This document shows, in pieces, positions 8,897 through 60,031 of a stretch of DNA of 64,000 nt. Where the stretch lies: assembly GCA_965246835.1 (NCBI GenBank), contig CBDFFQ010000001.1, positions 2,558,451-2,622,450 of the forward strand, written 5' to 3'. This DNA is from Acetobacteraceae bacterium (GTDB taxonomy: Bacteria; Pseudomonadota; Alphaproteobacteria; Acetobacterales; Acetobacteraceae). The first letter of the stretch is position 1; the number at the start of each line of letters is the position of its first letter. The notes under the pieces were generated by a model. It saw only the letters and a list, made by a program, of their open reading frames with translations. It did not search any database and was not told where the DNA came from. A program made the translations under genes and the position numbers.

Positions 8897-9952
8897 ATGG
8901 CGTTAGCGGAAGCGGTGCCAACACCAGATGCAGTAGAGCACCTGAAGGGAACACCTCAGCGGAAGGCATCCAGAATCGCCTATTCGACCGATTCCGGCTC
9001 CATGTATCACGGGTTTATAGAAGATGTCCTGAAGCGGCCCGACGTCAGGCAATCTCGCGGCAAGGTGGACCTGATATTCACGTCTCCGCCGTTCCCACTT
9101 GTCACCAAAAAGCGCTACGGCAACGAGACGGGCGAGGCATATCTGAACTGGCTTACGTCGCTGGCCGAGCCACTGGCAGAGATGCTGGCACCGAACGGCT
9201 CTATAGTGATGGAGGTTGGAAATGCGTGGGAGAAGGGTTCGCCCACGATGTCCACGTTGCCGCTGGAGTCGCTACTGGCCTTTAAGAAGGCAGGAAACCT
9301 GCATCTCTGCCAGCATGTGATTTGTCACAATCCTGCCCGTCTTCCGAGCCCGGCAGCTTGGGTAACCATCAAGCGCCTTCGCCTGAAAGACACCTACACA
9401 CATGTCTGGTGGATGTCGAAAAGCGAATATCCGAAAGCAGACACCCGCAAAGTGCTGACTCCCTACAGCAAAGAAATGCTGAAGCTGCTCGCTCGCCAGT
9501 CCTATAACTCCGGCCAGCGCCCCTCGGGGCATAAGATTTCAGAGCGGGGCTTCATGACCGACCAGGGAGGAGCCATTCCAGCGAACGTTCTCGACTTTCA
9601 GGACGGCGACGACCGCCTTCCTCCAGCGTTGATGAAGTTCGCCGGCACCGGGTGGGACACGAAATACAGGGATTACTGCAAGGAGATGGGAGTGGATGCC
9701 CACCCGGCTCGCATGCAGATGAGTCTGGCCGCGTTCTTCATAAGCTACCTGACTGACGCAGGGGACCTGGTGCTCGATCCATTCGCGGGTTCCAACACGA
9801 CCGGTGCCTCTGCCGAGCAGTTAGGCCGGAGATGGCTAGGGGTCGAAGCCGAGGAACAATATGTAATCGGGTCAAAAGGCCGCTTCAGCGGCTTCTTCGG
9901 TGCCGGGTCGAAAGGGCAGCCCTCCTCTTCGCAGGATATCGAACATGAATGA
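8897..9952 (+). CDS. DNA methyltransferase, beta-class (N4-cytosine or N6-adenine)
   Basis: Motif IV FTSPPF precedes motif I LDPFAGSNTTG, which is the permuted order typical of the beta class. The stop overlaps the next gene's start. Confidence 0.8.
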   Translation: MALAEAVPTPDAVEHLKGTPQRKASRIAYSTDSGSMYHGFIEDVLKRPDVRQSRGKVDLIFTSPPFPLVTKKRYGNETGEAYLNWLTSLAEPLAEMLAPNGSIVMEVGNAWEKGSPTMSTLPLESLLAFKKAGNLHLCQHVICHNPARLPSPAAWVTIKRLRLKDTYTHVWWMSKSEYPKADTRKVLTPYSKEMLKLLARQSYNSGQRPSGHKISERGFMTDQGGAIPANVLDFQDGDDRLPPALMKFAGTGWDTKYRDYCKEMGVDAHPARMQMSLAAFFISYLTDAGDLVLDPFAGSNTTGASAEQLGRRWLGVEAEEQYVIGSKGRFSGFFGAGSKGQPSSSQDIEHE

Positions 9953-12688: not shown

Positions 12689-13458
12689 AAAAGATGTTTG
12701 TCGGCAACTGTTCGCCGGAGACGCTCTTCGAAATGACGGACCCCGACAGCGTGTCGGAGACAGCCTTTGAGGCGTGGGTCGTCCGGGCACTGGCCTGCGC
12801 GTTCCCGAGCTACCGCTGCGTTATCTTCACGGGCTCGTTTCAATACGAAGGCCGTACATTCCGGCCGGACCTGGCCTTGCTGTCGCGTGACCTGTCTCAC
12901 TGGTTCATCATTGAGGTCGAGCTGACGACGCACTCGCTTTACCAGCACGTTCTGCCCCAGGTGCGCGCATTCAGATACGGCGAGCCACAAGCTGATTGCG
13001 CGCCCGGTCTGGCTACGGCGCTGGGTCTGCCGCTTGGGCAGGCGGAGACGCTGGTCCGGCGCATCCCGTATGGCATTGCAGTTGTAGCTAATCGAGATAA
13101 TCGAGACTGGTGGGTAGCGCTCAACGCGCACGAGATACAGATGCTCACCGTTTCAGCGTATACGTGCCCAAAGGGGATTGAGGCTTTGGAGGTTGATGGC
13201 TCCCTGGAAGTCGTGAAGGACAGTCTGGGGTTCGGGATTTATTCCGCAGCGGTTCGGTCACTTCGGTTCAGCCCGCTGCTCAGGGTTGTCGGACCGCGCG
13301 TTTTGATACGGGACTATTTCGGAGGCCTGTCCTGGTGGCTCGTTCATCGTGACGTAGATGCAACCTGGCTGACCAAGGAGCTCGGGACACCTGACATCGA
13401 CGATAGCAAACACGTGCAGCTTGTGGCGACCCGCGACGGCGGATTATCCCTAAGATGA
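12685..13458 (+). CDS. hypothetical protein, possible PD-(D/E)xK-fold nuclease
   Basis: ATGA overlap with the helicase. FRPDLALLSRDLSHWFIIEVELTTH resembles a restriction-endonuclease-like core, but the lysine is not obvious. Confidence 0.5.
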   Translation: MKKMFVGNCSPETLFEMTDPDSVSETAFEAWVVRALACAFPSYRCVIFTGSFQYEGRTFRPDLALLSRDLSHWFIIEVELTTHSLYQHVLPQVRAFRYGEPQADCAPGLATALGLPLGQAETLVRRIPYGIAVVANRDNRDWWVALNAHEIQMLTVSAYTCPKGIEALEVDGSLEVVKDSLGFGIYSAAVRSLRFSPLLRVVGPRVLIRDYFGGLSWWLVHRDVDATWLTKELGTPDIDDSKHVQLVATRDGGLSLR

Positions 13459-13981
13459 CCGGGGCGGCAGGCTGGGTAACGCGTCTGAAACCATCGTCAA
13501 ATTCCGGCCGGGGGCACGCTCAGTTTAGAACACCACTGAGGCTGCCAATGGGTCAGGGCGGTCTAGAGGAGGCACCGCTCCGACTCAATGACGAACAGCA
13601 CGACTATTTGGGACCGCTGCTAAGCCGCCTTCAATCCTTGGTCACGGGAGACGTACTGGGCATCCGGGAACTCGGCACGGAGTGCGGCGACGACCGCTGC
13701 ATCGGCCCCCCACAGGACGAGAGCTGACCCTTTGCCGGATCCAGAATTCCGCCCTTGCCCAGAGCCGTCAATAAATTTCACCCGACGCTTCAGCAGCAGC
13801 ACGTCAGCGACACCGTAAACACTTGCTGACCACCACCGGGTATCAAAGCTTCCGGGGACAAGCCCCACGACCAGCGAGGCCTCACCAGTATCGACCGCTC
13901 GGGCGCAACGTTCGACGCAGGCGACGATTTCGCGTCCGTACGGGGGATTCGCGTACACAACACCCTCCCACCGCGCCACTA

Positions 13982-15033
13982 GAGCGGTTTCCATTCATTC
14001 TGGCTCATACCCGGCGGCAGTGAAGTAGCTGGCGCAGTCCTGCGCGGTAAAGCAGGGAAGCGCGTTGCGGATCACGTCCCATAGGTCGTCGATCGTGCGT
14101 GCTGCTGCCTTGCGCAGGTAGGCTTTGAGCTTGGAGAAGGCATTCTCGATTGGGTTGAAGTCGGGGGAGTAGGGCGGCAGGTAGCGTAGCGTGGCCCCAA
14201 CTGCCTCGATCGCCCGCCGCACGTCTGCGCCTTTATGCGCGGGCAGATTATCCATGATGACGGTGTCGCCTCGGTGGAGCGTGGGCACCAGCACCTGCTC
14301 GATGTAGGCCTGGAAGGCGATGCGGTTCATCGGGCCGTCGAGGACCATGGGCGCGGTCATGCCGCTGACCCGAAGCGCGCCGGTGAAGGTGGTCGTCTTC
14401 CAGTGACCATGCGGCACGGCGGCGCGGCAGCGCTCGCCTTTGCGGGCGCGGCCGCGGATCCGGGCCATCTTGGTCGATGCGCCGGTCTCGTCGATGAAGA
14501 CCAGGCGCTTGGGGTCGAGGTCAGGCTGGCCTGCGAACCAGGCTCGCCGTCGGGCTGCGACGTCGGGCCGCTCCTGCTCGGCTGCGTGCGCTGTTTTTTT
14601 TGAAGGTGAGGCCGTGGCGGTCGAGGCAGCGCCAGATGGTGCTGGGGCCGAACGAGGCGCCGTGGTGGTCGCGCAGCAGGTCCGACAGCTCAGCCAAGCT
14701 GATGTCCTTCTGGGCCGCGACCGCTGTCAGGATCACGCCGCTGAAGGCCTCGATCCGACGCGAGCGGGTGTCGCCGCCCTGCGGCTTGGGCGCGACGGAC
14801 CCGGTCGTATTGACTGCCTGCACCCACCGGACGGCGCTCGCAGCTGAAACACCAAACCGCTCCGCCGCAGCGCGCCGAGACATGCCGTCTGCAACCGCCG
14901 CAACAAGCCGGGACCGTAGATCGACGGAAAGAATCTTCCCCATGCACGCTGGCCTCCTAACCAGCCTGCATGGTGAATCACATCACGCCCGCGTCGGGGA
15001 ATCCCTTTGATTCAGACCGGACGAGAACCGCTC
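13982..15033 (-). mobile_element. IS630-family insertion sequence, copy 1 (1052 bp)
   Basis: Terminal inverted repeats GAGCGGTT(C/T)C. Flanked by TA/TA within CTAG. All six-frame ORFs are identical to copies 2 and 3. Confidence 0.9.
13995..14943 (-). CDS. IS630-family DDE transposase (two frames joined at a T8/A8 run)
   Basis: orfA is an HTH part (14521..14943). orfB is the DDE part ([28 protein letters not shown]). The A8 run lies at 14594..14601. Confidence 0.85.
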
Positions 15034-15553
15034 TAGTGCATCCTCCTCGCGGGTGATGTAGCGGATTGCGGGCACAGGGCTTCGCTCCATCCCCGGCGAG
15101 AACGCATCTACATCGAACTGCTCGCGGCCCAGGGCCTTGAGAATACGGGCGAGCAATGGCTTGGGCGTGTACCATTCGACATGGGTACTGGGTCCGCGCC
15201 CGAAAAAGGGTTTCACCTCATCTTCGCCGGTCACTGCAAGCCGTTCGAAGGCACGATGTGTGTCCTGGGACGCACCGACATCATTGGCAGCCGTCGGCCG
15301 CTGCTTTCCGCGCTTCGAGACATGCCGCCGCAGCGGCTGCTCTCCCCGTCGCGCAAGGCAACCATCCAACTGACGAAGAACCCACTCATGGAGTGGCGCG
15401 CCGTCATTGGCTGCATGCCGGTGAAGGCGGTCCAGGTCCTCGCGATAGAGATAAAGCGAAGTGGCCGAGGTCTCGCGCTTGATGCCGGTCCGGGTATCAT
15501 CCTTTTCGTCGCGGCGGTTTCGCGTCGGCGGGGTTGTCACCGCCGCTTTCGTC

Positions 15554-18415: not shown

Positions 18416-18838
18416 GGGCGAATGGTTAATGCACAAAACCCAAGGCCCACTGGTAGGTTTCTTCGATGCGGGCCGCGATCTCTGCCTCAGTCAACTCGTG
18501 AAGCCCGTCCGCAAGTTCATCGCAATCGTTTAAGTATATGAAGGCCGCGACTTCAGCCGGCTCAAACCGGGTCGCCAACTCAATGAATCTTCGAGCCGTG
18601 TCATTCTCAAAATTTGGCACCTCATGGCCGTCCTCGTCTTCATCGGGATAGTAAGTTTCGCCGTCCTCTTCGATTCCGTCCCGACTCAGGCGGAGCAAGT
18701 CAGATGCTTTTGACAGGGATACCCTCCCGTCAAGCGCTACAAGCATAGTCAGAAGCTCGAAATCCGATTCGGCCATCGGGTCAGGGATCCCGACTTCCAA
18801 AGCAATGCATTCTCCCAGAGCCGTTTGATAACGAACTA

Positions 18839-19890
18839 GAGCGGTTCTCGTCCGGTCTGAATCAAAGGGATTCCCCGACGCGGGCGTGATGTGATTCACC
18901 ATGCAGGCTGGTTAGGAGGCCAGCGTGCATGGGGAAGATTCTTTCCGTCGATCTACGGTCCCGGCTTGTTGCGGCGGTTGCAGACGGCATGTCTCGGCGC
19001 GCTGCGGCGGAGCGGTTTGGTGTTTCAGCTGCGAGCGCCGTCCGGTGGGTGCAGGCAGTCAATACGACCGGGTCCGTCGCGCCCAAGCCGCAGGGCGGCG
19101 ACACCCGCTCGCGTCGGATCGAGGCCTTCAGCGGCGTGATCCTGACAGCGGTCGCGGCCCAGAAGGACATCAGCTTGGCTGAGCTGTCGGACCTGCTGCG
19201 CGACCACCACGGCGCCTCGTTCGGCCCCAGCACCATCTGGCGCTGCCTCGACCGCCACGGCCTCACCTTCAAAAAAAACAGCGCACGCAGCCGAGCAGGA
19301 GCGGCCCGACGTCGCAGCCCGACGGCGAGCCTGGTTCGCAGGCCAGCCTGACCTCGACCCCAAGCGCCTGGTCTTCATCGACGAGACCGGCGCATCGACC
19401 AAGATGGCCCGGATCCGCGGCCGCGCCCGCAAAGGCGAGCGCTGCCGCGCCGCCGTGCCGCATGGTCACTGGAAGACGACCACCTTCACCGGCGCGCTTC
19501 GGGTCAGCGGCATGACCGCGCCCATGGTCCTCGACGGCCCGATGAACCGCATCGCCTTCCAGGCCTACATCGAGCAGGTGCTGGTGCCCACGCTCCACCG
19601 AGGCGACACCGTCATCATGGATAATCTGCCCGCGCATAAAGGCGCAGACGTGCGGCGGGCGATCGAGGCAGTTGGGGCCACGCTACGCTACCTGCCGCCC
19701 TACTCCCCCGACTTCAACCCAATCGAGAATGCCTTCTCCAAGCTCAAAGCCTACCTGCGCAAGGCAGCAGCACGCACGATCGACGACCTATGGGACGTGA
19801 TCCGCAACGCGCTTCCCTGCTTTACCGCGCAGGACTGCGCCAGCTACTTCACTGCCGCCGGGTATGAGCCAGAATGAATGGAAACCGCTC
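18839..19890 (+). mobile_element. IS630-family insertion sequence, copy 2
   Basis: Same ends and the same ORFs as copies 1 and 3. TA duplication in CTAG. Confidence 0.9.
18929..19877 (+). CDS. IS630-family DDE transposase (frames joined at A8 19271..19278)
   Basis: Identical to the copy 1 protein parts. Confidence 0.85.
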
Positions 19891-20488
19891 TAGACATGAA
19901 ATCATAATGGATGCGCGCTTGTCCGAAATGGTCGGTATTCCAGCCGTTTTGACATTCAGCCTGGAGTGCTGGCCCCCCCAAATTTGAAACGGTTTCGGAT
20001 TGGCAGTCGAGTTCACAACTGGAGCCGGCCGGTTCTCTGACGACGCGGATGCGTTGGGATCTGCCGCAGCCTTCAATGGCCAGAGATAGCTCAGGAACTG
20101 CCTCATGAGTGACGCTCTATCAAAGGATCCCACTGCTGGCACAGACCTAAATCGCTGTCACTCTTTCCACGGTCGCCGTCCCCTGATGCACGCCAGCACC
20201 TCTGCCGAAAGGACTTCCTTCTGAAGGCAAACAGCTTACACCGGGATTGCTGGCCGAGCACACTGTCGGAAGGTGGTGTTGGAATAGGCCGCATGAGTTA
20301 TGCCGTTCACACGCGGACGTCCGCGTCCGATCCAAGGTTTATCGTCCTGCCTCATTGATTTGCTAAAAAATACGTTGGCGGCAGCCCAACTGTCAGTCGC
20401 CCAGCACTCTCAGCAAGATCTACCAGTACGCCAGACCTCGAAAAATTGAGACATCGGATCACCTATTGCCCCTGGCCGAGAAATCGGC

Positions 20489-21571
20489 TCAATCGCTTCG
20501 GCTGCTGCGCACGGCCAAAACACCCATGAGAATGCGATCGATAGCGTCTGGCCCGTCGGCCAAAGCGGGCGGGCCATCAACAAATTCCAAGCCAGCATCG
20601 ACCGGGTAAACGCTCATCTTGCCTATCCCGGCTGTTACCGCGTCCTGAACGAACGCCTGAAATTCGGCATTTGGGGCCGCGTTCGCGCGAAAGACGAAGC
20701 CGGCGATCAGGTCGCATAGCTGCAGCGACGAGCACTCGTGGCTACGGGCGCTGGTCGTCGACGTTACAGATATTGGTAACGTGAGCGTCTTCTTGTTGCC
20801 CACTTGGATGACTTGAGCGGGATGGGTCGCATCGGTCATCTCCGACCAGCGCCGACTACGCGCGAAGAAATGCTTGCTCTCATCGTGGAAGACCGCGAAC
20901 GGCCCTGTGTGACGGCTCTGCCAGTGAGCCATGCTCGACACTAAGCTTGTAACATGGATATCGTTCGAATCCTTGAGTAGTGACAGATTAGTACCTTGGA
21001 GGCGATTGACTCCCTCCACCATCAAGCTCAGGAAGGGGGTTGTTTCCTCAGGCGCACTGAGTGTTACATTCTTGAGGGCCGCCTGAAGACGGCTAAGCGT
21101 GTTGGCATCCGGCGCGCGTCCAAACGCGTTGTAAGCCGCAAAAAGAACTGTCAGAGCATCTTTGTTCAGGAAATTGTCAAACGCGAAATAAGCCATATTA
21201 GCATAGCGTGCAGCATAGTCATCTTTGTAGAAATCATAACCATTTGCACGCACCACTGGCTCTGTAAGATAGTCAACCATCTTGCAGAGCACTGCAAAGT
21301 GCTTATTTATTTTGGTCGCAACAAAGCGTTCGGGCTGTAAGCCTACCTCCTGTGCAAATGAAAGAAATGCACGACGACCCTGAGATCGCTTAAATATTTC
21401 CTTCGACTTAATTTCCGGCCCTTTTTGAAGCGGGAAGCAGCGCCTTATTATGTCGGTAGCCTCATCCTCCTGGATGTCCGTGCTGCCAATTGTGAAGTAG
21501 GGCTGCTCAGAGTCGAGTAACTCAGTGCCAGTATTGCCACTTTCGTCAAAGTAAATTCTCGTAACGTCCAT
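20489..21571 (-). CDS. DUF3800-like protein
   Basis: Start set at MDVTRIYFDESGNTG, the characteristic DUF3800 N-terminus. Lies in an AT-richer block. Confidence 0.65.
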   Translation of the reverse strand: MDVTRIYFDESGNTGTELLDSEQPYFTIGSTDIQEDEATDIIRRCFPLQKGPEIKSKEIFKRSQGRRAFLSFAQEVGLQPERFVATKINKHFAVLCKMVDYLTEPVVRANGYDFYKDDYAARYANMAYFAFDNFLNKDALTVLFAAYNAFGRAPDANTLSRLQAALKNVTLSAPEETTPFLSLMVEGVNRLQGTNLSLLKDSNDIHVTSLVSSMAHWQSRHTGPFAVFHDESKHFFARSRRWSEMTDATHPAQVIQVGNKKTLTLPISVTSTTSARSHECSSLQLCDLIAGFVFRANAAPNAEFQAFVQDAVTAGIGKMSVYPVDAGLEFVDGPPALADGPDAIDRILMGVLAVRSSRSD

Positions 21572-21866
21572 CCTGCCCTCTTGTAGCGCAAAGCTGGTCC
21601 AGGCACTAAGTCTGACCTGCCGCACGCCCCCCCAAAACACCCCAGAAGGGGATAATTTAGCCTACTGCGGCAAGACCGCAAATGGCCGCTTTCCGTCACA
21701 AGGGCTCACCCGTCCACATGGGTGCTCCCTCCCGAGACACCCACGCCGAACATTCGTCCTGGGACGAACCCGTCTCGTCAGGGTTAGCTTGCCGATATCC
21801 GAGACAAACAGCTGACTTTCCGGACCGGGGTCTAGGATAATCCGAGACACAGCAACGGAGTTTTGG

Positions 21867-22487
21867 ATGGCAAAATACGGATATGCACGGGTAAGTTCAG
21901 ACGACCAGAGCCTGGACGTACAGCAGGAGCAGCTGCGGGCGGCGGGGTGCGACGTGGTGCGCGGGGAACACGCATCGGGAGCGTCCCGGGACGGACGCGG
22001 CGAACTCGCGCTCCTGCTCCAGTTCCTCCGCGCCGGTGACAGGCTGGTCGTCACCCGGGTGGACCGGCTGGCGAGGAGCCTTGCCGACCTTCAGGACCTG
22101 ATGCGCGAACTGAAAGCAAAGGGCGTGACGCTGGAAGCCACCGAACAGCGCATTGACACCGGCACGTCCGGCGGCAAGGCGTTTCTGGACATGTTGGGCG
22201 TGTTCGCGGAGTTTGAAACGAACCTGCGGCGCGAGCGTCAGATGGAAGGCATCGCCAAAGCCAAAGCCCGCGGGGTCTACAAGGGCAGACCGGCGAAGAT
22301 AAGGGCCGACCGCATCAGCGAATTACTCGACGGCGGTATGACCCCGACTGAGGTGGCCCGCGAGATGGGGATTGGGAGGGCGAGCGTATATCGAGTTCTG
22401 AGCAGAAGCACGCCGCTGACGAGTTGCACAACACGCCACCATTCCGTCGATGAACCGGCAGTTACTACGCAGGAAGCGGGTATTTAG
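21867..22487 (+). CDS. serine recombinase (resolvase/invertase family)
   Basis: MAKYGYARVSSDDQSLDVQ catalytic-Ser motif. C-terminal HTH (TPTEVAREMGIGRASVYRVL). Confidence 0.9.
   Translation: MAKYGYARVSSDDQSLDVQQEQLRAAGCDVVRGEHASGASRDGRGELALLLQFLRAGDRLVVTRVDRLARSLADLQDLMRELKAKGVTLEATEQRIDTGTSGGKAFLDMLGVFAEFETNLRRERQMEGIAKAKARGVYKGRPAKIRADRISELLDGGMTPTEVAREMGIGRASVYRVLSRSTPLTSCTTRHHSVDEPAVTTQEAGI
21980..21995. repeat. motif A copy 4
   Basis: agcGTCCCGGGACgga. In the recombinase CDS, read as S-R-D-G. Confidence 0.8.
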
Positions 22488-22567: not shown

Positions 22568-23998
22568 ATGGCAAACCGCCGATTCGTTTTCCTCGGTCAC
22601 GCGAACCCGCATGACAACGCATTTACCCTGTGGCTGGGTGCTCGACTGAGCGCCGCAGGGTTTGAGGTTTGGTCAGACCTGCGCCAGCTCCACGGAGGCG
22701 AGACGTTCTGGAACGACATCGAGGACGGACTTCGGCAACACACCGCAGTCTACGTTCCGATCCTGTCAAATTCCTCAGTGAACCGCGAGCGACGCGGCTT
22801 CCACGATGAAATCGCCATGGCCGTCCAGATTATGAGAACCCCGAACATGGAGCGGTTCATACAGCCGGTCATGATCGAGCGGGTTCATCCGGTCCCTCCT
22901 CCGCTTATTCAGCTCAACTACATCGACTTCACCGGAGGCTGGGCGAACGGCCTTCTGAGGCTCATCACTGCACTGGAAAAGTCCGGCGTTCCCAGAACGG
23001 ACAACCCGCCGACACAGGCGGTTTCGGCTTGGCGTGGCTATCAGGCAAGCGCCGCCGGGGCTGCGCAAGAGGCGGACGATCCCGAGCGTCTCTCGACCAC
23101 ATGGTTCGGCATCGACGGTCTGCCGCCCCGCATTCGTCTGGTTAAATCGCCTGTGGCATTCGACACCTGGACCAGGCTGCTGACGAATCATGGTGTGCCG
23201 CATGCCATCCATGGGGATGAGGTGCTTACTTTTGCCTCCGCGAAGCACATCGAGGAGCGACTGGGCGCGGACATCCCTGTCAGGCAATCGGCAGAGCACC
23301 GCACGGAACGTTTCCTCGTGGGTGACACGGGAAAAAACGGACTGCGTATTCGACCCGGGGAAGCGCAACGGCTCGTCGCCGGCATGATCAACCGGAGCTG
23401 GGACATTTTTGCTGCCTCTCGTGGGCTGCACCGTCATGAACTCTCGAAATCGACCGCATGGTTTTTCCCGCTCGACCTTCTTGGCGGAAAAACCCGGTTC
23501 GAGAAGGAAGTCGGCGGAATCGGTGAAAGAGCGTTGATCGGTCGAAAGGGGAAGTTGGGAGTGCGATGGCATTTTGCCCTGTCGGCAAGGTTCGAGTTGC
23601 GTGAGCCAAGCCGCCTGATCGTCCGCTCGCATGTGCTGTTCAGCCAAGGCGGGACGGCGATGTTGGACAGCAAGAAAGCCCAGCGGCTGCGCAAATCGCT
23701 CTGCAAAGGTTGGTGGAACGACGAATGGCGGGACCGGCTTCAACTTGCCATGGCATACTTGAGCCAACGCGAGGGAGCGCTCCGTCTGCCGCTTCGGCAC
23801 AGCCCGACCCTGCGGCTTACCTTGGGTGACGCATGGGTCGATGTGGCAGCCCGTTCCATGCTCTTCGAGAGCGTGTCTTCGTTCCAGCGCCCACGCACGG
23901 AGGCAGAGCGGGAAGAGCCGAACGACAAGGCATTCGACGAGGAGGTTCGCGCGCCGGAGCTACCGGACGGTGACGATGACGACGAGGACGAGAAGTGA
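22568..23998 (+). CDS. TIR-APAZ protein (SPARTA-type effector partner of a short pAgo)
   Basis: N-terminal TIR-like FVFLGHANPHDNAFTLWLGARLSAAGFEVWSDLRQLHGGETFWNDIEDGL...HDEIAMAV, followed by about 330 aa. The stop overlaps the pAgo start. Confidence 0.8.
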   Translation: MANRRFVFLGHANPHDNAFTLWLGARLSAAGFEVWSDLRQLHGGETFWNDIEDGLRQHTAVYVPILSNSSVNRERRGFHDEIAMAVQIMRTPNMERFIQPVMIERVHPVPPPLIQLNYIDFTGGWANGLLRLITALEKSGVPRTDNPPTQAVSAWRGYQASAAGAAQEADDPERLSTTWFGIDGLPPRIRLVKSPVAFDTWTRLLTNHGVPHAIHGDEVLTFASAKHIEERLGADIPVRQSAEHRTERFLVGDTGKNGLRIRPGEAQRLVAGMINRSWDIFAASRGLHRHELSKSTAWFFPLDLLGGKTRFEKEVGGIGERALIGRKGKLGVRWHFALSARFELREPSRLIVRSHVLFSQGGTAMLDSKKAQRLRKSLCKGWWNDEWRDRLQLAMAYLSQREGALRLPLRHSPTLRLTLGDAWVDVAARSMLFESVSSFQRPRTEAEREEPNDKAFDEEVRAPELPDGDDDDEDEK

Positions 23999-25467
23999 CC
24001 GTGCGAAAGCTCCTGAAGCTGCCGGAGCCACTTCTTCGCGTTGGACATGCACAGCTGACGGATAATCCGAAAGACGGTCTGTTTCTCTTCGGGCCGGTTA
24101 TCGATGCAGAGCACCCACGCCAACTCCGGCTCGGGATCATCGGAACCACGGAGGGCTTACTTCGGTATCAGCGTTGGGCAAAGCGCATGCGGGGGTTCAT
24201 TCCCGCGCCTGAGAAGGCCCGTGCCTTTCACATGGCGTGGCCCGGCTTCGAAGCCGCTTTCAGCTGCGAATGGCCGGAAGAGCCTGTTGCCACCCTGGTT
24301 GTTGACGGCACCGAAATATTCAATGCGATCCATATCCGGGACCGCCATGAGGCAATTTACAAAACTGTCGACCTGTTCCTTCAGCCTATGCTGGCCCACA
24401 CACGCAAGGAGGAAAGCAGGCCTACTCTGTGGTTCGTCGTCATCCCGGAGGACATATACAAGTTCGGCAGGGAGAAATCGCTGATACCGCCCCACCTCAG
24501 ACAGCCCTCATCAAGCCGGGCCGGTGACAAGGTGGTAAGGGCCAGCCTGAAGCTTGGTCAGGGGCTTCTGTTAACCGACGACGCTGAAGGTGCGCGGCTT
24601 CACCGGTTTTCCAGGGATTTCCACAATCAGCTGAAGGCCCGGCTGCTGCGAGAGCGCATTGCCATTCAGATCGTCCGGGAGACGACGCTTGCGCCCGAGG
24701 ACTTCCTGACGAACTTCGGCAAGCCTGCGCGGGTCATGGAGGATGAGGCGACACGGGCGTGGAATCTCGGTGTCGGAACCTTCTTCAAAGGTGAGGGGAA
24801 GCCGTGGAGCCTGGCCGCCGCTCGGCCGGGGGTGTGCTACATAGGCCTTGTCTTCAAGAAGGTTCCGGGGGGACCGGTAGGGTATTCTGCCTGCGGAGCC
24901 CAGATGTTTCTGGACTCCGGCGTGGGCACGGTGTTTCGAGGGGCCATGGGTCCCTGGCGTAGCCCTGAGGACAAATCATATCACCTCTCGGAAGACGCTG
25001 CCGCCGACCTCGCGAGGGTCGTCATCGCCGAGTTTGAGCGGAAGCATCACGGCGCACGGCCGACCGAGTTGTTCATCCACGGACGCATTGCCTTCTCCGA
25101 TGCTGAGTGGCGTGGCTTTTCAGCCGCTGTCGATTACCGAACGAATCTCGTCGGGGTTCGCATCCGTCAGACCGATGAACTGAAGGCATTCACACCGGGT
25201 GAGATGCCATTGCTCCGGGGTCATGCCCTAATCCTGACACCGACAAAGGCTTTCTTGTGGAGCAACGGCTTTGTGCCACGCCTGGACACGTATCCCGGCT
25301 GGGAGGTCCCGCGCCCGCTGGCGATTGACGTCGTCCGGGGCGAGGCGGGCATGGAAACGGTGCTCGGTGACGTGTTGGCGTTGACCAAGCTCAACTACAA
25401 TTCCGCAGGTTACGGGTCCGGCCTTCCGGTCACTCTCGGCTTTGCCGATGCTGTCGGAGAGATTCTA

Positions 25468-26519
25468 GAGCGGTTCTCGTCCGGTCTGAATCAAAGGGAT
25501 TCCCCGACGCGGGCGTGATGTGATTCACCATGCAGGCTGGTTAGGAGGCCAGCGTGCATGGGGAAGATTCTTTCCGTCGATCTACGGTCCCGGCTTGTTG
25601 CGGCGGTTGCAGACGGCATGTCTCGGCGCGCTGCGGCGGAGCGGTTTGGTGTTTCAGCTGCGAGCGCCGTCCGGTGGGTGCAGGCAGTCAATACGACCGG
25701 GTCCGTCGCGCCCAAGCCGCAGGGCGGCGACACCCGCTCGCGTCGGATCGAGGCCTTCAGCGGCGTGATCCTGACAGCGGTCGCGGCCCAGAAGGACATC
25801 AGCTTGGCTGAGCTGTCGGACCTGCTGCGCGACCACCACGGCGCCTCGTTCGGCCCCAGCACCATCTGGCGCTGCCTCGACCGCCACGGCCTCACCTTCA
25901 AAAAAAACAGCGCACGCAGCCGAGCAGGAGCGGCCCGACGTCGCAGCCCGACGGCGAGCCTGGTTCGCAGGCCAGCCTGACCTCGACCCCAAGCGCCTGG
26001 TCTTCATCGACGAGACCGGCGCATCGACCAAGATGGCCCGGATCCGCGGCCGCGCCCGCAAAGGCGAGCGCTGCCGCGCCGCCGTGCCGCATGGTCACTG
26101 GAAGACGACCACCTTCACCGGCGCGCTTCGGGTCAGCGGCATGACCGCGCCCATGGTCCTCGACGGCCCGATGAACCGCATCGCCTTCCAGGCCTACATC
26201 GAGCAGGTGCTGGTGCCCACGCTCCACCGAGGCGACACCGTCATCATGGATAATCTGCCCGCGCATAAAGGCGCAGACGTGCGGCGGGCGATCGAGGCAG
26301 TTGGGGCCACGCTACGCTACCTGCCGCCCTACTCCCCCGACTTCAACCCAATCGAGAATGCCTTCTCCAAGCTCAAAGCCTACCTGCGCAAGGCAGCAGC
26401 ACGCACGATCGACGACCTATGGGACGTGATCCGCAACGCGCTTCCCTGCTTTACCGCGCAGGACTGCGCCAGCTACTTCACTGCCGCCGGGTATGAGCCA
26501 GAATGAATGGAAACCGCTC
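25468..26519 (+). mobile_element. IS630-family insertion sequence, copy 3
   Basis: Same ends and ORFs as the other copies. TA duplication in CTAG. Confidence 0.9.
25558..26506 (+). CDS. IS630-family DDE transposase (frames joined at A8 25900..25907)
   Basis: Identical to copies 1 and 2. Confidence 0.85.
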
Positions 26520-26652
26520 TAGTCGCTGCACCTATCGAAGATACGCCGCCCCTCCCATTCCGCTTCTACATGTAGCCCGCTCCGGGCCTGAGCGCTGGCT
26601 CAGCCGTTGGAGGACCTTTGCAGGCGTTGCACGTCTCCCCGGTTCGCTCGTC

Positions 26653-27198
26653 TCAGTGGCCGCCGTAAAGCGCGTTGTAGTCTGACTTGGCAACAAAAGC
26701 TCCGATGAGTCTGCACAACGGCTCACCGGCGGCAATCAACAACGCTCCCAGCAGGTTCTTCCTGGATAGATCGCCTCGACGTGCGGCAATTTCATCAACA
26801 CGAGCCATTGCCAGAAAAGCCATCAAGGCAGACACGTGCCGGGAATTGCGCATGGCTTTCACAACCGGTATCGCCCAAACATGATATCCGCGATAAGTCT
26901 GTTCGGAAATCCGTGAAGAAGCATCTTCGGAGCACAACCGGTAATCGTCTTGTGACATCCTGCCCTGTGAGTAGAGTTCGGTGCAGATCACTTTCTTTTT
27001 TTCAGCCGGTTCGCTGGTCCAAGGCGTTTGCCCCGACCAGAGCAAGTTGTCCCTTGCCGTTTCGCTTCCGTGAGCCGAGGCGATCTGCCATGAATCAATC
27101 TGGCTCTGCTGAGCGAGGGCGTGGTTTTGTTCTCGCCGAGCCGCTTTTTGGTCGGCGGCCCACTGCATCTGCCTTGAGAACTCGTCATCGGAAGCCAT
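26653..27198 (-). CDS. hypothetical protein
   Basis: Start set at MASDDEFSRQMQW. Coding-like. Divergent from the next gene. No domain recognised. Confidence 0.5.
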   Translation of the reverse strand: MASDDEFSRQMQWAADQKAARREQNHALAQQSQIDSWQIASAHGSETARDNLLWSGQTPWTSEPAEKKKVICTELYSQGRMSQDDYRLCSEDASSRISEQTYRGYHVWAIPVVKAMRNSRHVSALMAFLAMARVDEIAARRGDLSRKNLLGALLIAAGEPLCRLIGAFVAKSDYNALYGGH

Positions 27199-27456
27199 CG
27201 GTTGCACTCCCAGATCAAAGGCCGGCACTACGTTTACCAGCCTGACCCACATACAGTGCGCCGCCTCTCTTTCGAATAGGTATGCAGAAATTGCATCTGC
27301 GCCATCGGCACGGAGTGAGCAAATAACCAAACTTAGAGGGGAACGTTGTTGGACGGCGAGCCCCGGGGAAAAGCTGCTGGCTGGCGGCCGGTCCATAAAC
27401 GACCGGTTGCGGGACACGTGCATATCTGCAGGTTCGCGTCGTGCTATCCTGCTCCC

Positions 27457-28725
27457 ATGCCTCCGCCGACGCTTTACATGGACAGCAGCGATTACTCGAA
27501 CCTTGCAGCTGCTGTGGGAGACGGACCCTTTGCTGCCCGTCAGCGATGGTTGGATCTGCGGACACGAATTCTGGCGGCAAAAGCGAACGGTAGAGCCGTT
27601 TTCAGGTTTTCATACCCCATCGTGATGGAGGCTTACCCGACATCACCGGACCATCTTGCCCACGCCGTGGGGCGAGCTGCCGTTATCGGCGAAGTGTGCG
27701 GGAAAGATTGCATTCTTGATTTTCTCACGCTTGTTACCGAAGAGAGCAAAGCACTTGTGCTTCGGGGCGAGCAGTTCGAGAGGGCCGCCGCTTGGCGAAA
27801 CGATGGCGCGTGGCACCCAAATCCTGATGGTCTGCTCAGCGAATCAATCGCAGGTTTCAGGACCGGGTTGCCCAGCCAGCTTCGTGAACAACTCAAGGAG
27901 TCCAGGCTGCTGAACCGGAAGGCCCGGAGAAAACTTGAACTCTCGATGTTTTCCCGAGACGGTACTCCCACCCGACAGATGGCTTCGCTGTTCACGCTGG
28001 AACAGCGTCAGGAACTCAGTGCGGCGATCGGCCAGCGTTTTCATCTTCCTGGTTCAGCCCTCACCACGGACATCCCGGCCAAAGTCATACTGGGAGAGCT
28101 GCCCATTTCAGCTATGAGTGCACTGCTCGGTGCTATTCTCCGCGACTTGCCAACGCTGTTTCAACAGGAAGCCGTCCGGAAACACGAAGGCGCGCTTTTC
28201 CACTGGATCCGAAGCACAGGGCAGTCAGTTTCCGCCCCGCTCCGAGAGGCCCGCGCAAACCTTCTCGACATGATTGGCCGCCTGGGCTTGGACCGGGTTC
28301 GCTCCTTACATGCTCAGAGTGAGCTGGAATCCATCTCACAGACTTGGCTCGTCAAGCTGCGTACTCAGTTACTGGAAGCTCTCTGGAAAGCGGAACATCT
28401 GGCCCTCACGTCCTCAGGCGTAACCGCTCGCGACTGGGACGGCATCGTCAAAGGCTCGGGCTCGGGCCGAATGCCGGCTCTGGATGCACTCGTCACGGCT
28501 TGCGTCTTGCACATCGTCGCAGCTCTCCGGCCTTCGGCTCAACCCCGTCAACCCCGGGATAGCGACGGCGGCGATATGATCCATATGATGTATCTCCCAT
28601 ACGTCGATGTATTCCGGTGTGACGGTTACGCGGCAACGATTGCGGACCAGGTAGTCAGCGAGTTCGGTTTGTCTGCGGAGATTGTGACAAGCATGGAGCA
28701 GGCGCTAGAGGTTGTTGGTTGCTGA
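27457..28725 (+). CDS. hypothetical protein (422 aa) with PIN-like N- and C-terminal acidic motifs
   Basis: Start set at ATG 27457 (MPPPTLYMDSSDYSNL). The C-terminus GDMIHMMYLPYVDVFRCDGYAATIADQV is reminiscent of a split PIN/PIN-like fold. This assignment is weak. Confidence 0.5.
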   Translation: MPPPTLYMDSSDYSNLAAAVGDGPFAARQRWLDLRTRILAAKANGRAVFRFSYPIVMEAYPTSPDHLAHAVGRAAVIGEVCGKDCILDFLTLVTEESKALVLRGEQFERAAAWRNDGAWHPNPDGLLSESIAGFRTGLPSQLREQLKESRLLNRKARRKLELSMFSRDGTPTRQMASLFTLEQRQELSAAIGQRFHLPGSALTTDIPAKVILGELPISAMSALLGAILRDLPTLFQQEAVRKHEGALFHWIRSTGQSVSAPLREARANLLDMIGRLGLDRVRSLHAQSELESISQTWLVKLRTQLLEALWKAEHLALTSSGVTARDWDGIVKGSGSGRMPALDALVTACVLHIVAALRPSAQPRQPRDSDGGDMIHMMYLPYVDVFRCDGYAATIADQVVSEFGLSAEIVTSMEQALEVVGC

Positions 28726-30089: not shown

Positions 30090-30458
30090 ATGAGCGAAAC
30101 AAAGACACAATTGAGTAAAGCGGAAGGCGGCCTGCGCTGGCTCGGCAAGCAATCTCTGCTCGGCGCACGTGACGGCTGCATAGCTCTCGCTGCGATGACG
30201 GCGATGACCTACAGCGCCACGGACAGCCTGACCCCGGACATGCTCAGGCCCCTCGCCGCTGCCTGGGATATTACCCTTGCTGACCATGAGGCGCTTCTCC
30301 GGGTCGCCTTCTTCGGAGGAGCAATCATCTCGGCAGCCCAGACCGCAGTGGGGTTCGCCGGCCTGTCGCTGGTCGCCCGCCTCCTCATCGCTGCGGGCAA
30401 AATCCTGTTCCGAGCGCACGTCCGTCCAGTGATGGAGGCGCGCGATGGCGGACGGTAA
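30090..30458 (+). CDS. small membrane protein
   Basis: Start set at ATG 30090 (MSETKTQL). Two hydrophobic helices. The stop overlaps the start of the 1002-aa gene. Confidence 0.5.
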   Translation: MSETKTQLSKAEGGLRWLGKQSLLGARDGCIALAAMTAMTYSATDSLTPDMLRPLAAAWDITLADHEALLRVAFFGGAIISAAQTAVGFAGLSLVARLLIAAGKILFRAHVRPVMEARDGGR

Positions 30459-33453
30459 TCACAGCGCGTTCCGGCGTGCCCGCAGTCTGCTGTTTCCGGC
30501 CATCGTGCCCGCCTTCAAAGACATGCACAGCACCATTGCCGAAGAGGCACGCGGCACTCGCAGCGTGGTCGCGGGTGCATTCTCCCCTTACCGACCCGAC
30601 CCGCGCGTTGCTGCCGTTTCAGACCCGAAGGAGCGCTTCAAGGTGGCCCTGTTCGTGGCAGGCCGCGGAGAGCGTGACCTGCCAGCCATCGAGCAGCAGG
30701 CCGGTCGCACGTTTGAGCTCTACGCCGTGCTGACCCTGATAGCCGTCCTGTGGCTGTTCGTCGCCCCCGCGCTCGGCCTCGGCGGCGCAAGCGGCTGGCG
30801 GCTCGCCGACCTGATGCTGCCCGTTGGTGTCGTCCTGTTAATCGGCTCCAAGGCGTTCGCGACCAGTGTCGCGCTGTACCGTATACAAAGGCGCAGCCTC
30901 GTCCCTGTTCGTGAGTTCCTGCGCGACCCGAATGCGTGGCTGGGCGGGAAACCGCACCTCGGCACGACCCTTACCGCACTCGCCATCGGCCTCGGCCTTG
31001 GTCATTTCCTGAACGCGCCCGCGCTGGCACAGGGGGCCGCCGTGACGGCCGCCGCAGGAATTCAGGGAGCCGGTGCTTCCTTGCAGACGCTGGCAACGTA
31101 TGCGGGCGCGGAAGACCTATCACTGGAATGGCTGCGCAGGCTGTTCCCCGGAATGGCGAACCTTGCCTGTCCGTCCAATCCCGTCACGGCAGCGGCGAAC
31201 TCCTGCGCCGCTTCGAACGCGGATGTTCTCGGCGCGATGATGGGCGCGCTGAACAGCATTCTTTGCGGGTTCGGCAGCATCATTCTCGCATGGCACACGA
31301 TTGCCGGCACCGTAGCCACCGCGCACGAGGGCAAGGTTATGGGCCAGCGCTGGCATACGATGTGGGCACCCGTACGGGTGTGTCTCGGCTTCGGTATGCT
31401 GGTGCCCGTCAAGGGCTACTGCGGCGCTCAGTTCGCCGTCCTGCTCGTCATCGTCGGCGGCTACAACATGGCGAACGGGCTGTGGTCCGCATACATCGAC
31501 AAGGCCTTGTCAGGTGAAATGGCATCTGTCGCCGCGAGCACCGCCCCCAGCATGGGGCTGGACCTCGCGCACTCGGTGCTCGGCTCCGAAACCTGCGTGG
31601 CCGTTCTCGACAACTACCGTCGCGGCGTGGACTCCCAGAACCGCGGCGCGCTCGCCCGCCTGAGCATCCGCATGGGCCTGTACGACACGGGAGTGCCTGC
31701 GACGAACCTGCCCAGCCCGGCCGGAACGGCAGGCACTGCCGACGTGAATGCCGGCCACATTGCAAACCTGCGCCTTGCCTCGGCTCTCACCCCCACGAAG
31801 ATATGGGACTACGGCACCGTCTGCGGCCTCATCCGCACAAGCGCCAACGATAACCCCGGCAACGAAATAGCCAGCGCTCTCGGCGGGGTCGTGAATACAG
31901 GACTGGGAGCGGTCGGCAGCGGTGTTAACACCGGGGTCAATCTTACCTTCGCGAACGCCTCGAACCAGGCTTACAGCGCCTTCATCACCACACGGGATGC
32001 GGCGGTGACGACTCTCATCACGTCTGTCAGGGCCGCAGGCCTGCACACAGCTGTCGCGAATGCCGTGTCGGCAGGACAGAACGTGGTCGTCGCCGGCAAC
32101 CCTGTCTCGGGTCCGGATATGGTTACAAAGTACAATGCGGTGCGCGCTGCCGCCGTCGCATTCGACGCGTCGGTGGATGATGCGGCCAAGGAGCTCGTCA
32201 CGGTTCTGAACAGCAGCGGCGGGGCCACGTTCAAGGCTCGCGCGCAGGCGCTCGGCTGGGCTTCGGCGGGTGGACTGAACAGCACGATGGTGCGGGCTGC
32301 CGCAAGGGCGCAGGAGTTGGTGACGAACGCAGCCCCGCGCGCCACGGGACCGAACCTGACCGAGCTGAGGACGGTAGCCGAGAGGGCACCCGCCGAGTAC
32401 CGCACGCAGCTGGAAGCGGGCCTCGGCTACCTCGGAAACATCGTCCGCGACATGGAAGCGCGCGGCGAGACCAACCCCCGCAGCACGACGCTTGGTGACG
32501 ACATGCAGGGCCGCAATCTGCTGGCCCAAATCGTCAAGCCCATCACCGACAGCATCATGCGCGGTCTCACCGACAAGGTGGCCTATATCGACCCTGTGCA
32601 TCCCATCGCCGACATCCAGAACCTCGGCAATCTGATGCTGGCGGGCGGATGGAGCGGCGTGGCCGTGCTGATAGCCGCGAAGAGCGGAGGGGGCTTCATC
32701 AACGGCATCCCCATCGTTGGCGGTATGGCCGGAGGTGCGATTCAGGGCGCGCTGGAAGCGCTGGGGCCGATTATCTGGACGCTGCTCGGGGCGCTGTTCA
32801 TCTGCGGAACCATGCACGCCTACATCCTGCCGATGCTGCCGTTCCTGCTGTGGTTTTATGCCATCATCGCCGTGGTTTCTCTGGCGGCCGAGCTGGTCAT
32901 CGCGGCTCCGCTTGCTGCGTTCATGCACATCCGTGCGGATGGTCAGGAACTCATCAACGCCGAGCAGCGGACCATTTACATGATGAGCTTCAACGCGCTG
33001 CTGCGGCCGAGCCTGCTGCTGTGCGGTCTGGTCGTCAGCAACCTGGTGCTGAGCGTTTCGGCCAACTTCCTGAACAAGCTTTACGGTGTGGCCGTGACCA
33101 CGACGAACGGCGACAGCGTGGTGGGCGTGATGGGGTTCATCTCGCTGACCGTGCTCGCCTTCTACATGCACTATCAGATGGTCGTGCGCAGCATGCACCT
33201 GATAACGGCGGTGCCTGCGATGGTCAGTAGCCTGCTTCAGGTGGGCGACCAGGAACGGGGTGAGAAGCACGAGGGCAACCAGGTGTTCGCTGCCATCGGC
33301 AACGTTACCCGGAGCGGTGTGAGCGCCACCAGCCAGGGACTGATGCGTGGGTTGGCACCTAAGCCCGGGCAGGAGCTTGAAAACCCGAAACCCCGCCCGC
33401 CGACAGAGAACAAGGTCACAGCCGCAGGAACCGGCGGGGGAGGTCAAACATGA
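30445..33453 (+). CDS. large polytopic membrane protein, DotA/TraY-like (tentative)
   Basis: 1002 aa. N-terminal TM hairpins. A WHTMWAPVRVCLGFGMLVPVKGYCGAQF segment recalls the DotA/TraY family. About 370 aa form an Ala/Gly/Asn-rich exported region. Ends in a C-terminal multi-TM bundle. Confidence 0.45.
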   Translation: MADGNHSAFRRARSLLFPAIVPAFKDMHSTIAEEARGTRSVVAGAFSPYRPDPRVAAVSDPKERFKVALFVAGRGERDLPAIEQQAGRTFELYAVLTLIAVLWLFVAPALGLGGASGWRLADLMLPVGVVLLIGSKAFATSVALYRIQRRSLVPVREFLRDPNAWLGGKPHLGTTLTALAIGLGLGHFLNAPALAQGAAVTAAAGIQGAGASLQTLATYAGAEDLSLEWLRRLFPGMANLACPSNPVTAAANSCAASNADVLGAMMGALNSILCGFGSIILAWHTIAGTVATAHEGKVMGQRWHTMWAPVRVCLGFGMLVPVKGYCGAQFAVLLVIVGGYNMANGLWSAYIDKALSGEMASVAASTAPSMGLDLAHSVLGSETCVAVLDNYRRGVDSQNRGALARLSIRMGLYDTGVPATNLPSPAGTAGTADVNAGHIANLRLASALTPTKIWDYGTVCGLIRTSANDNPGNEIASALGGVVNTGLGAVGSGVNTGVNLTFANASNQAYSAFITTRDAAVTTLITSVRAAGLHTAVANAVSAGQNVVVAGNPVSGPDMVTKYNAVRAAAVAFDASVDDAAKELVTVLNSSGGATFKARAQALGWASAGGLNSTMVRAAARAQELVTNAAPRATGPNLTELRTVAERAPAEYRTQLEAGLGYLGNIVRDMEARGETNPRSTTLGDDMQGRNLLAQIVKPITDSIMRGLTDKVAYIDPVHPIADIQNLGNLMLAGGWSGVAVLIAAKSGGGFINGIPIVGGMAGGAIQGALEALGPIIWTLLGALFICGTMHAYILPMLPFLLWFYAIIAVVSLAAELVIAAPLAAFMHIRADGQELINAEQRTIYMMSFNALLRPSLLLCGLVVSNLVLSVSANFLNKLYGVAVTTTNGDSVVGVMGFISLTVLAFYMHYQMVVRSMHLITAVPAMVSSLLQVGDQERGEKHEGNQVFAAIGNVTRSGVSATSQGLMRGLAPKPGQELENPKPRPPTENKVTAAGTGGGGQT

Positions 33454-34435: not shown

Positions 34436-35847
34436 GATCGTGTCCCGAGTCGTGGTGTAGCAACGGCGTTGCTGAGCAGGGCTGGCTGCTCGATCAGGCT
34501 GCCAAGGACGGCAGGCTGACGGCGATATCATCGCTGAGTGGGGCGATGGTTTCCAGGCTCATGTATCGGGCGCGCTGAACGGCCCATTCGTCGTGCTGTT
34601 CCAGCAGCAGCGCGCCGATCAGACGGGTGACGGCGGCCTCGTTGGGGAAGATGCCGACGACCTCGCTGCGGCGCTTAATCTCGCCGTTGAGGCGCTCGAG
34701 TGGGTTTGTGCTGTGCAGCTTGGCCCGATGCTGGACGGGAAAACCCATGTAGGCGAGCACGTCGGCCTCGGCGTCATCCATGAGGGCGGCGAGCTTTGGC
34801 ACGCGGGGCCGGGCCTGGTCGGCGACCTCGCGCCATTGCTTGCGTGCGGCAGCCGCGTCGTCTTGGGCGAACGCCGTGCCGACCCAGGCCGAGACGATGC
34901 GGCGCTGCGTCTTGCCCGCGTAGGCCAGTGCGTTGCGCATGAAATGCACCCGGCACCGCTGCCAGGTCGCGCCGAGCACCTTGATGATGGCGGCCTTGAG
35001 CCCGGGATGGGCGTCCGAGACGACCAGCTTGGCGCCGCGCAGGCCGCGCCTGGCCAGCGATCGCAGGAACTCGACCCAGAACGGCTCGGCCTCGCTGTGG
35101 CCCGTGGTCATGCCCAGCACCTCGCGCCTGCCATCTGTGTTGACGCCGACGGCGACGATGACGGCGACCGAGACGATGTGATGGTCGCGGCGGACTTTGA
35201 CGTAGGTGGCGTCAAGCCAGAGATACGGCCAATCCCCCTCAATCGGCCGGGCCAGGAAGGCGTTGACGCGCTCGTCGATCTCGCCGCACAGGCGGGAAAC
35301 CTGGCTCTTGCTGATGCCGTCCATGCCCATGGATCGCACCAGGTCGTCGACGGAGCGGGTGGAGATCCCCTGGATGTAGGCTTCCTGGATCACGGCCGTT
35401 AGCGCCTTCTCGGCCATGCGGCGGGGTTCGAGGAAGCCGGGGAAGTAGCTGCCCCGGCGCAGCTTCGGGATGCGCAGCTCGACGGTGCCGGCCCGGGTCT
35501 GCCAGTCGCGGTCGCGGTAGCCGTTGCGCTGGTTGGTCCGCTCGGCGCTGCGCTCGCCCGGTGCGGCGCCGCAGAGGCCGTCGGTTTCGAGTGCCATGAG
35601 GCGTTCGGCGGCGAAGCCGATCATCTCGCGCAGGAACGTCGTATCGGAGCCCTTCTCCAGAAGCGCGCGAAGGGCGATCTTGTCATCGGTCATCGTGGTG
35701 GTCCTCGGGTCAGAGTTGCGTCTCGCAACCCAACCCTACCCAGCAACATCGCGATGACCACTGATCGGCTCGTCTCCGCAGCCGCCTACGGCGACCGCTC
35801 CGACAAGCCGATCAGTGGCGTCCTACACCACTACCGGGGACACGACC
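34436..35847 (-). mobile_element. IS256-family insertion sequence (1412 bp)
   Basis: Imperfect terminal IRs G(A/G)TCGTGTCCC.. Flanked by the 8-bp direct repeat CATGAAGG (34428..34435 and 35848..35855). Confidence 0.85.
34494..35693 (-). CDS. IS256-family (mutator-type) transposase
   Basis: 399 aa. ..[37 protein letters not shown].. is characteristic. Confidence 0.9.
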
Positions 35848-60027: not shown

Positions 60028-60031
60028 CCGC

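Follow-up and report, generated by a model that had tools for sequence, protein, structure and literature searches.

A SPARTA operon on a mobilizable island whose Argonaute C-terminus has been exchanged by an IS630-family insertion

What becomes of an abortive-infection system when an insertion sequence (IS) exchanges the last few residues of its sensor, and why should such an exchange have occurred? The question is raised by two overlapping genes, the second of them interrupted by an IS, at positions 22568-26575 of a 64,000-nucleotide stretch of Acetobacteraceae DNA (contig CBDFFQ010000001.1; this whole stretch is referred to here as the window). The genes encode a TIR-APAZ protein and a short prokaryotic Argonaute (pAgo). 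Gene arrangement, sequence, predicted fold and key residues all identify the locus as a SPARTA operon, in which a short pAgo of clade S2A is paired with TIR-APAZ. It is a broken member of this known system and does not represent a new kind of system or mechanism. The explanation that we consider probable is that the operon, carried on a 46-kb mobilizable island, underwent an ordinary and recent IS630 knock-out of pAgo sensing.

The operon and its exchanged Argonaute C-terminus

CrtSPARTA from Crenotalea thermophila, MapSPARTA from Maribacter polysiphoniae and BabSPARTA each consist of a short pAgo of clade S2A and a TIR-APAZ protein (PMC9097488, Koopal et al. 2022), and SPARTA structures include 8isy, 8fex, 8i87 and 8qlo. 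According to the literature, intact SPARTA is a heterodimer that holds a guide RNA, phosphorylated at its 5' end, in the MID pocket. Once single-stranded DNA of an invader has paired with the guide, the acidic TIR-APAZ tail is displaced and the complexes are driven to dock through their Agos and to form tetramers, whereupon the TIR domains hydrolyse NAD(P)+, killing or arresting the invaded cell.

The first gene of the operon (22568-23998, plus strand) encodes a TIR-APAZ protein of 476 amino acids, in which an N-terminal TIR NADase domain with the catalytic Glu81 is followed by an APAZ region and, at the C-terminus, by an acidic tail. Residues 7-132 matched Pfam TIR_2 (E=3.9e-17), residues 4-455 matched the PADLOC profile Aga_TIR-PNTD1-PNTD2 (E=4e-112), and the protein was aligned with the TIR-APAZ chains of solved SPARTA complexes in the PDB (8z92, 8ifk, 8qlo and 8fex) at E ~1e-44. 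In the alignment, Glu81 (HDEIAMAV) was found opposite the catalytic Glu77 (KELAVA) of CrtTIR-APAZ, the residue being E77 in both Map and Crt. An earlier reading of this DNA, made from the sequence only, had described a TIR-like N-terminus with the conserved Glu and a long APAZ region, all of which were confirmed. Asp and Glu make up 47% of residues 441-476 (36 residues), the protein ending in DGDDDDEDEK, which fits the acidic autoinhibitory APAZ tail described for clades S2A and S2B, where it is 21-45% acidic (PMC10899771).

The second gene begins with a GTG codon that overlaps the TGA stop of TIR-APAZ by four nucleotides (GTGA); the earlier reading had called the two genes translationally coupled. 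Its native part, codons 1-491 (23995-25467, plus strand), encodes the MID-PIWI region, whereas the fused open reading frame (ORF), as now encoded, extends from 23995 to 25518 and specifies 507 amino acids. This fused pAgo matched PADLOC pAgo_I with E=2.1e-177, covering profile positions 3-478 of 493 only, and the early end of the match was the first hint of a lost C-terminus. The MID-PIWI region of the fused protein was predicted to fold (AlphaFold2 pTM 0.81), and the best Foldseek match of the model in the PDB was Crt-SPARTA (TM 0.90; pAgo identity 34-37%). The alignment with the 507-residue solved SPARTA Agos spans the whole protein, which consists of MID and PIWI and lacks the N and PAZ domains. 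In this alignment the pocket residues are kept, H210 and K214 corresponding to H207 and K211 of Map and Crt, and N467 and N469 to N466 and N468. From the close homology to inactive SPARTA Agos, the PIWI domain is predicted to be catalytically dead, with the DEDX tetrad lost.

Pfam-A returned no family for the short pAgo, Piwi included, at E<=0.01. This missing match is due to the poor sensitivity of the Pfam Piwi model to short pAgos and is not counter-evidence. Checked against profiles, the earlier assignment is therefore strongly supported by PADLOC, PDB, Foldseek and TIR_2 matches, while the Pfam Piwi and MID models are silent, which would speak against it only if PADLOC and the PDB were ignored. 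The SPARTA-type pair that had been proposed, with TIR-APAZ upstream and a MID-PIWI-only pAgo downstream, was borne out by profiles, PDB alignments and Foldseek alike. Screens using Pfam alone would overlook short pAgos of this class, for which the PADLOC and PDB matches here were at E <1e-100.

The pAgo gene is interrupted by an IS630-family element of 1052 bp (25468-26519, plus strand), with TA duplicated at 25466-25467 and 26520-26521 within CTAG; the element is bracketed by CTAG at 25465-25468 and at 26519-26522. Its terminal inverted repeats are imperfect (GAGCGGTT.../...AACCGCTC). Codon 491 is the last native codon of the fused gene, and the protein ends ..GEIL-ERFSSGLNQRDSPTRA, the final 16 codons and a TGA stop (25468-25518, plus strand) being encoded by the IS. 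The displaced native 3' end, consisting of 17 codons and a TAG stop, is found on the other side of the element (26522-26575, plus strand). When the IS and one TA were removed in silico, ..GEIL was joined to VAAPIEDTPPLPFRFYM and its stop codon, resulting in a pAgo of 508 amino acids. The restored protein aligned with CrtAgo and MapAgo from residue 3-4 to its last residue, reaching their residue 507 of 507 (E ~1e-115), and such an end-to-end alignment with solved SPARTA Agos argues against a chance pattern. The native remnant VAAPIEDTPPLPFRFYM lies opposite TASTEIKTPPLAFKYYI (residues 491-507) of CrtAgo, and GEILVAAPIEDTPPLPFRFYM of the restored pAgo lies opposite GEILTASTEIKTPPLAFKYYI in the Crt/Map Ago alignment. 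The residues cut off by the IS are therefore 492-508, equivalent to 491-507 of Map and Crt. For residues 497-507 of the fused pAgo, AlphaFold2 gave a pLDDT <50 (about 30), which predicts disorder in the tail that the IS encodes. The sequence-only reading had placed an IS630 copy in a CTAG 17 codons before the pAgo stop, with the tail replaced by 16 IS-encoded residues, and every sequence detail of this description was found to be right.

An assembly artefact was considered as the source of the insertion and rejected, as the TA/CTAG duplications are clean in three out of three copies of the element in the window and long ORFs, whose domains can be recognised, reappear once the copies are removed. 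The fused 507-residue pAgo was found once in public protein data, on the same contig as the gene at 57367-60252 in the high-GC flank; TIR-APAZ is recorded on that contig as well, and the flank gene has its named relatives in metagenome-assembled Acetobacteraceae genomes.

Like CrtSPARTA, MapSPARTA and BabSPARTA, the operon has TIR-APAZ first and the short pAgo second, and the proteins align collinearly from end to end. The sizes are also close, with 476 against 450-452 amino acids for TIR-APAZ and 508 against 507 for the restored pAgo. The TIR Glu, the His/Lys pocket of MID and the acidic TIR-APAZ tail are common to all of them, as is the pAgo C-terminus in the restored gene only. In contrast, it is a distant member, with PDB alignments that are only moderately identical, its present allele is without the last 17 pAgo residues because of the IS insertion, and its setting is a mobilizable island integrated into the DNA of an alphaproteobacterium of high GC content. 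The conserved pAgo C-terminus is the one defining SPARTA feature, among those tested, that the present allele lacks.

Predicted consequence of losing the tail

The lost residues belong to a strongly conserved end of the protein. The tail ..PLPFxxY[I/M] terminates 118 out of 119 database homologues of the pAgo, at an exact distance from the protein end, and within the 114 homologues with the strict motif there is no variation at P(-9), L(-7), P(-6), F(-5) and Y(-2). In our locus, the C-terminus ..PPLPFxxYI-COOH is present in the reconstructed gene only.

In MapAgo, Ile507 coordinates a metal that stabilises the guide 5'-phosphate, and mutants in residues that orient the 5'-phosphate have their NAD+ hydrolysis abolished (PMC10474274). 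In another study the Mg2+ site was described as comprising the 5'-phosphate, Asn468 and, putatively, Ile507 (PMC11156904). The C-terminal Ago loop is also found in the Ago dimer interface, and disruption of the dimer leads to no oligomerization and no NADase activity (PMC10474274). The functional importance that had been attributed to the pAgo tail, in the 5'-phosphate pocket, is thus supported by its conservation and by both studies. As the IS removes one ligand of the Mg2+/5'-phosphate site and one element of the Ago-Ago interface, sensing would be lost or badly impaired, and a loss of sensing from the loss of the tail is likely.

Several points weigh against this interpretation. The loss of function is itself inferred, and the SPARTA literature examined contained no report of a SPARTA Ago truncated at its C-terminus. 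The MID-PIWI region is otherwise intact and predicted to fold, so the fused protein may have partial activity or may retain its binding to TIR-APAZ. In addition, no IS-free pAgo allele turned up in any collection searched, protein database and metagenome contigs included, and the ancestral pAgo is therefore reconstructed, not observed. The sequence-only reading had suggested looking for such alleles; the protein database contained only the fused form, the next relative being 74% identical, and exact-junction DNA searches of metagenome contigs matched neither the empty site nor the IS end. A scan of the operon for promoters and terminators found sites no more frequently than in shuffled controls.

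If the inference holds, the locus provides a SPARTA Argonaute allele that has been naturally truncated at its C-terminus. The fused allele would then be a ready-made test of the role of the ..PPLPFxxYI tail in guide 5'-phosphate binding and in oligomerization.

Causes considered for the knock-out

IS630 targets CTAG and produces a 2-bp duplication (PMC2577343 table 1, citing Tenzen & Ohtsubo 1991). The element in pAgo is a standard member of this family, which belongs to the IS630/Tc1/mariner superfamily, having a transposase with helix-turn-helix (HTH) and DDE_3 parts, a length of ~1.05 kb, terminal inverted repeats and a TA-in-CTAG target with a 2-bp duplication. Its only oddity, and its difference from the family, is that the transposase is split over two frames. 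The N-terminal HTH part (ORF1; 25558-25980, plus strand; 140 amino acids) matched Pfam HTH_23, HTH_28 and related families, and the catalytic part (ORF2; 26033-26506, plus strand) matched Pfam DDE_3 with E=5.8e-32. The DDE frame, which is +1 relative to the HTH frame, is open from ~25900, and in the overlap of the two frames there is a run of eight A residues (A8; 25900-25907), common to all three copies. Judged from the sequence, this run may be a site of programmed transcriptional or translational slippage. The closest plasmid-borne relatives of the element in a plasmid collection showed ~75% DNA identity.

Two further copies, both 100% identical to the one in pAgo, are located upstream. The second copy (13982-15033, minus strand) splits the Dam-like N6A-methyltransferase domain of a C5-methyltransferase/Dam fusion, and the third (18839-19890, plus strand) interrupts a 225-codon ORF on the minus strand that has no family match. 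All three lie within 12.5 kb and are identical over 1058 nt when the flanking bases are included (13979-15036, minus; 18836-19893, plus; 25465-26522, plus). Each of them is flanked by CTAG, and excision leaves one CTAG and restores the interrupted ORF, which in the case of the methyltransferase fusion gives a protein of 676 amino acids (PF00145 C5-methyltransferase and PF05869 Dam-like). The identity of the three copies suggests that the insertion is recent and argues that the element has lately been active.

The distribution of the target could explain where the element went. CTAG occurs 23 times in the window, against ~210 expected from base composition, and is therefore ~10-fold rarer than expected. 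As 22 of these sites are in the island and only one is in the 18 kb of flanks, CTAG is almost confined to the lower-GC island, and a CTAG-specific IS would be channelled into horizontally acquired DNA. The SPARTA operon (2.95 kb) has a single CTAG, which is the insertion site, and the 3'-terminal position of the insertion in pAgo therefore follows from where a target was to be had.

Taken together, these observations point to a simple course of events, which we regard as the probable one. As the sequence shows, the IS630 element entered the sole CTAG of the operon, cutting off pAgo residues 492-508 and fusing 16 unrelated residues in their place. What was removed would be the C-terminal ligand of the Mg2+/5'-phosphate site together with part of the Ago-Ago interface, and the prediction is that the fused pAgo neither loads guides properly nor oligomerizes, which would turn the system off with TIR-APAZ intact. 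The pAgo insertion is one of three strikes by the same IS on island genes, and the availability of targets, together with local transposition into dispensable, CTAG-containing foreign DNA, would be enough as a cause. The abortive-infection system may also have been costly and selected against.

Disruption is not peculiar to this operon. The closest relatives of the pAgo were 74% identical (metagenome contig L082) and 68% identical (Falsiroseomonas sp. CW058). The TIR-APAZ gene contains an IS of another family in two of 81 related loci, which are unrelated to each other. In one of them (L073, 7232-10004) the gene is split by an IS256-type transposase (Transposase_mut, E=6e-118), and in the other (L011, 7713-9989) by an IS5-type transposase (DUF4096 and DDE_Tnp_1). 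Both are from metagenome-assembled genomes (MAGs), of Rhodothermales and Latescibacterota, with TIR-APAZ split near residue 191 and pAgo apparently intact. Frameshift-like splits were identified by tblastn in 5 more of the 81 loci, in TIR-APAZ in two (L002 and L050) and early in pAgo in three (L060, L064 and L079); these frame changes could mark genuine pseudogenes, or they could be indel errors of long reads or MAGs. SPARTA operons are thus disrupted repeatedly, and not at the 3' end of pAgo only, which fits a general decay or a cost-driven loss of an abortive-infection system. Nothing specific was found in the literature on IS-disrupted pAgo genes. Together with the two IS-split TIR-APAZ genes of its relatives, our locus adds to a picture in which IS elements often knock out the abortive-infection systems that mobile islands carry.

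The sequence-only reading had offered another cause, namely that an IncQ-like replicon on the same island triggered the system and that carriers of the IS knock-out were selected. On this account the island, when excised and replicating in multiple copies, would set off its own SPARTA. SPARTA does respond to transcribed plasmids at medium or high copy number, and single-copy DNA has no such effect (PMC9097488). The RepC, helicase-primase, iterons, relaxase, integrase and att repeats of the island appear intact, and the recurrence of IS-disrupted SPARTA operons in relatives is compatible with a fitness cost. However, the island is integrated at tRNA-Gln and is therefore single-copy as assembled, and low-copy plasmids (~5 copies) left SPARTA untriggered (Koopal et al., PMC9097488). 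The insertion site is, moreover, the only CTAG in the operon, and because the same IS also interrupted the methyltransferase fusion and an ORF without family match nearby, selection acting specifically on SPARTA is not needed. With three identical IS copies, a sole CTAG, an integrated island and relatives hit by other IS elements, self-triggering is unsupported, though unrefuted, and we consider it unlikely.

It could also be asked whether the position of the lesion was dictated by the need for a safe way of switching the system off. The fused pAgo would fold and clamp TIR-APAZ in an autoinhibited heterodimer that cannot sense, and only 3'-terminal lesions in pAgo would be tolerated, since TIR-APAZ set free acts as an NADase. 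In the absence of its pAgo, CrtTIR-APAZ is catalytically active, while MapTIR-APAZ is unstable without MapAgo (PMC9097488). How the intact TIR-APAZ behaves here would depend on its still being bound by the fused pAgo. As this explanation would have it, 491 of 508 residues are kept in the fused protein, and its fold is predicted with confidence. However, the single CTAG fully accounts for the 3'-terminal position, and the relatives include early pAgo frameshifts (some of them possibly MAG errors) as well as the IS insertions in TIR-APAZ, so that lesions are not limited to the pAgo 3' end. We consider such a safe-off allele distinctly improbable. The earlier statement that the TIR partner was left intact is true of the TIR-APAZ sequence, but it is no evidence of design.

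A further reading is that of a guide-blind clamp. The IS-fused pAgo would then be a tolerated or selected form and no dead gene, unable to sense and yet keeping the otherwise active TIR-APAZ NADase in its autoinhibited heterodimer, which would let a potentially multicopy, IncQ-like island carry SPARTA without killing the host. We regard this as doubtful and give it little credence; if true, it would reveal constraints on how an Argonaute system for abortive infection can be switched off safely. It is very improbable that the fused pAgo continues to sense and that the defence is active, since the deleted tail is near-invariant among the homologues, its replacement is unrelated and predicted to be disordered, and the tail contributes to the Ago-Ago interface needed for activation, even though all other mapped functional residues are intact and the metal contact of Ile507 is 'putative' in PMC11156904.

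The mobile island and its other genes

The 46-kb island that carries the operon is inserted at a tRNA-Gln gene in what is probably an Acetobacteraceae chromosome, with a GC content of ~60% inside and ~70% in the flanks. The 3' end (6009-6025) of the tRNA-Gln (TTG) gene (5951-6025, plus strand) forms the left copy of a 17-nt direct repeat. The right copy, TCCTTCCGCCCCAACCA (52162-52178, plus strand), marks the end of the island, where GC rises from ~57% to >70%. Next to the tRNA gene there is a tyrosine integrase (6303-7838, plus strand), whose match to Pfam Phage_integrase (E=2e-6) is just above threshold (28.1 bits against a cut-off of 27.1).

Plasmids of the IncQ (RSF1010-like) type have a RepA helicase, a RepB' primase, a RepC initiator and an iterated oriV. 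On the island, an IncQ-type RepC-like initiator (48330-49322, minus strand) matched Pfam RepC PF06504 (E=1.2e-24), and by tblastn it showed 29-33% identity over >=80% of its length to plasmid genes for 'replication protein C, IncQ-type'. Candidate oriV iterons (48113-48175), with a 22-nt unit in 2.9 copies and a 97% match, lie beside repC in an AT-richer region. A protein of 676 amino acids (49258-51288, minus strand) combines a Prim-Pol primase (PF09250, E=1.1e-6) with an AAA_25, RepA-like helicase (E=1e-33), its assignment as a RepA helicase being a domain-level match only. A MobA/VirD2-type relaxase (42335-44260, minus strand) matched Pfam Relaxase (E=4.9e-10) and LPD7, with a weak NCBIfam match to TraI_MobP. 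NCBIfam gave no matches for RepC and the helicase-primase, nor for TIR-APAZ and pAgo.

The description of this module as an IncQ-like replicon therefore stands at the family level, for RepC, the RepA-like helicase and the three 22-nt iterons, but not for the primase, which is not of the RepB' type. No match to a RepB-type primase was detected among the ORFs scanned, the primase found being Prim-Pol (PF09250). The likeness to IncQ consists of the PF06504 RepC, the AAA_25 helicase, iterons adjacent to repC and a MOB relaxase nearby, whereas the fusion of Prim-Pol to the helicase and a RepC that is only ~30% identical set the island apart. IncQ replicons are, in addition, small free plasmids, and here the replication module is part of a chromosomally integrated island with a tyrosine integrase.

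The neighbours of the SPARTA operon are, upstream, a DUF3800 protein (20489-21640, minus strand) and a serine resolvase (21867-22487, plus strand) and, downstream, two ORFs overlapping head-to-head, of 256 amino acids (26653-27423, minus strand) and 459 amino acids (27346-28725, plus strand), neither of which had a match in Pfam, PADLOC or NCBIfam. A fixed resolvase-SPARTA cassette was considered and rejected. In the 74% identical relative, the resolvase is only 39% identical and oppositely placed, and none was found by tblastn in the Falsiroseomonas locus (L001).

Besides these two upstream genes and the C5/Dam methyltransferase fusion, the island carries KfrA and an IS256-family transposase. 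A cluster of four genes on the plus strand (8897-13458) encodes a type II N6/N4 methyltransferase (PADLOC MTase_II, 5e-78), a GHKL ATPase (HATPase_c_3), a PbeA-like ResIII helicase (PADLOC PbeA, 2.9e-74) and a matchless ORF of 257 amino acids; with this cluster the island may carry another defence system beside SPARTA. Further downstream, a DotA/TraY-family type IVB secretion protein (30445-33453, plus strand; TIGR04346, 1.4e-85), with no obvious full type IV secretion system around it, is adjoined by the IS256-family (Transposase_mut) transposase (34494-35693, minus strand). The island may be a decayed conjugative element.

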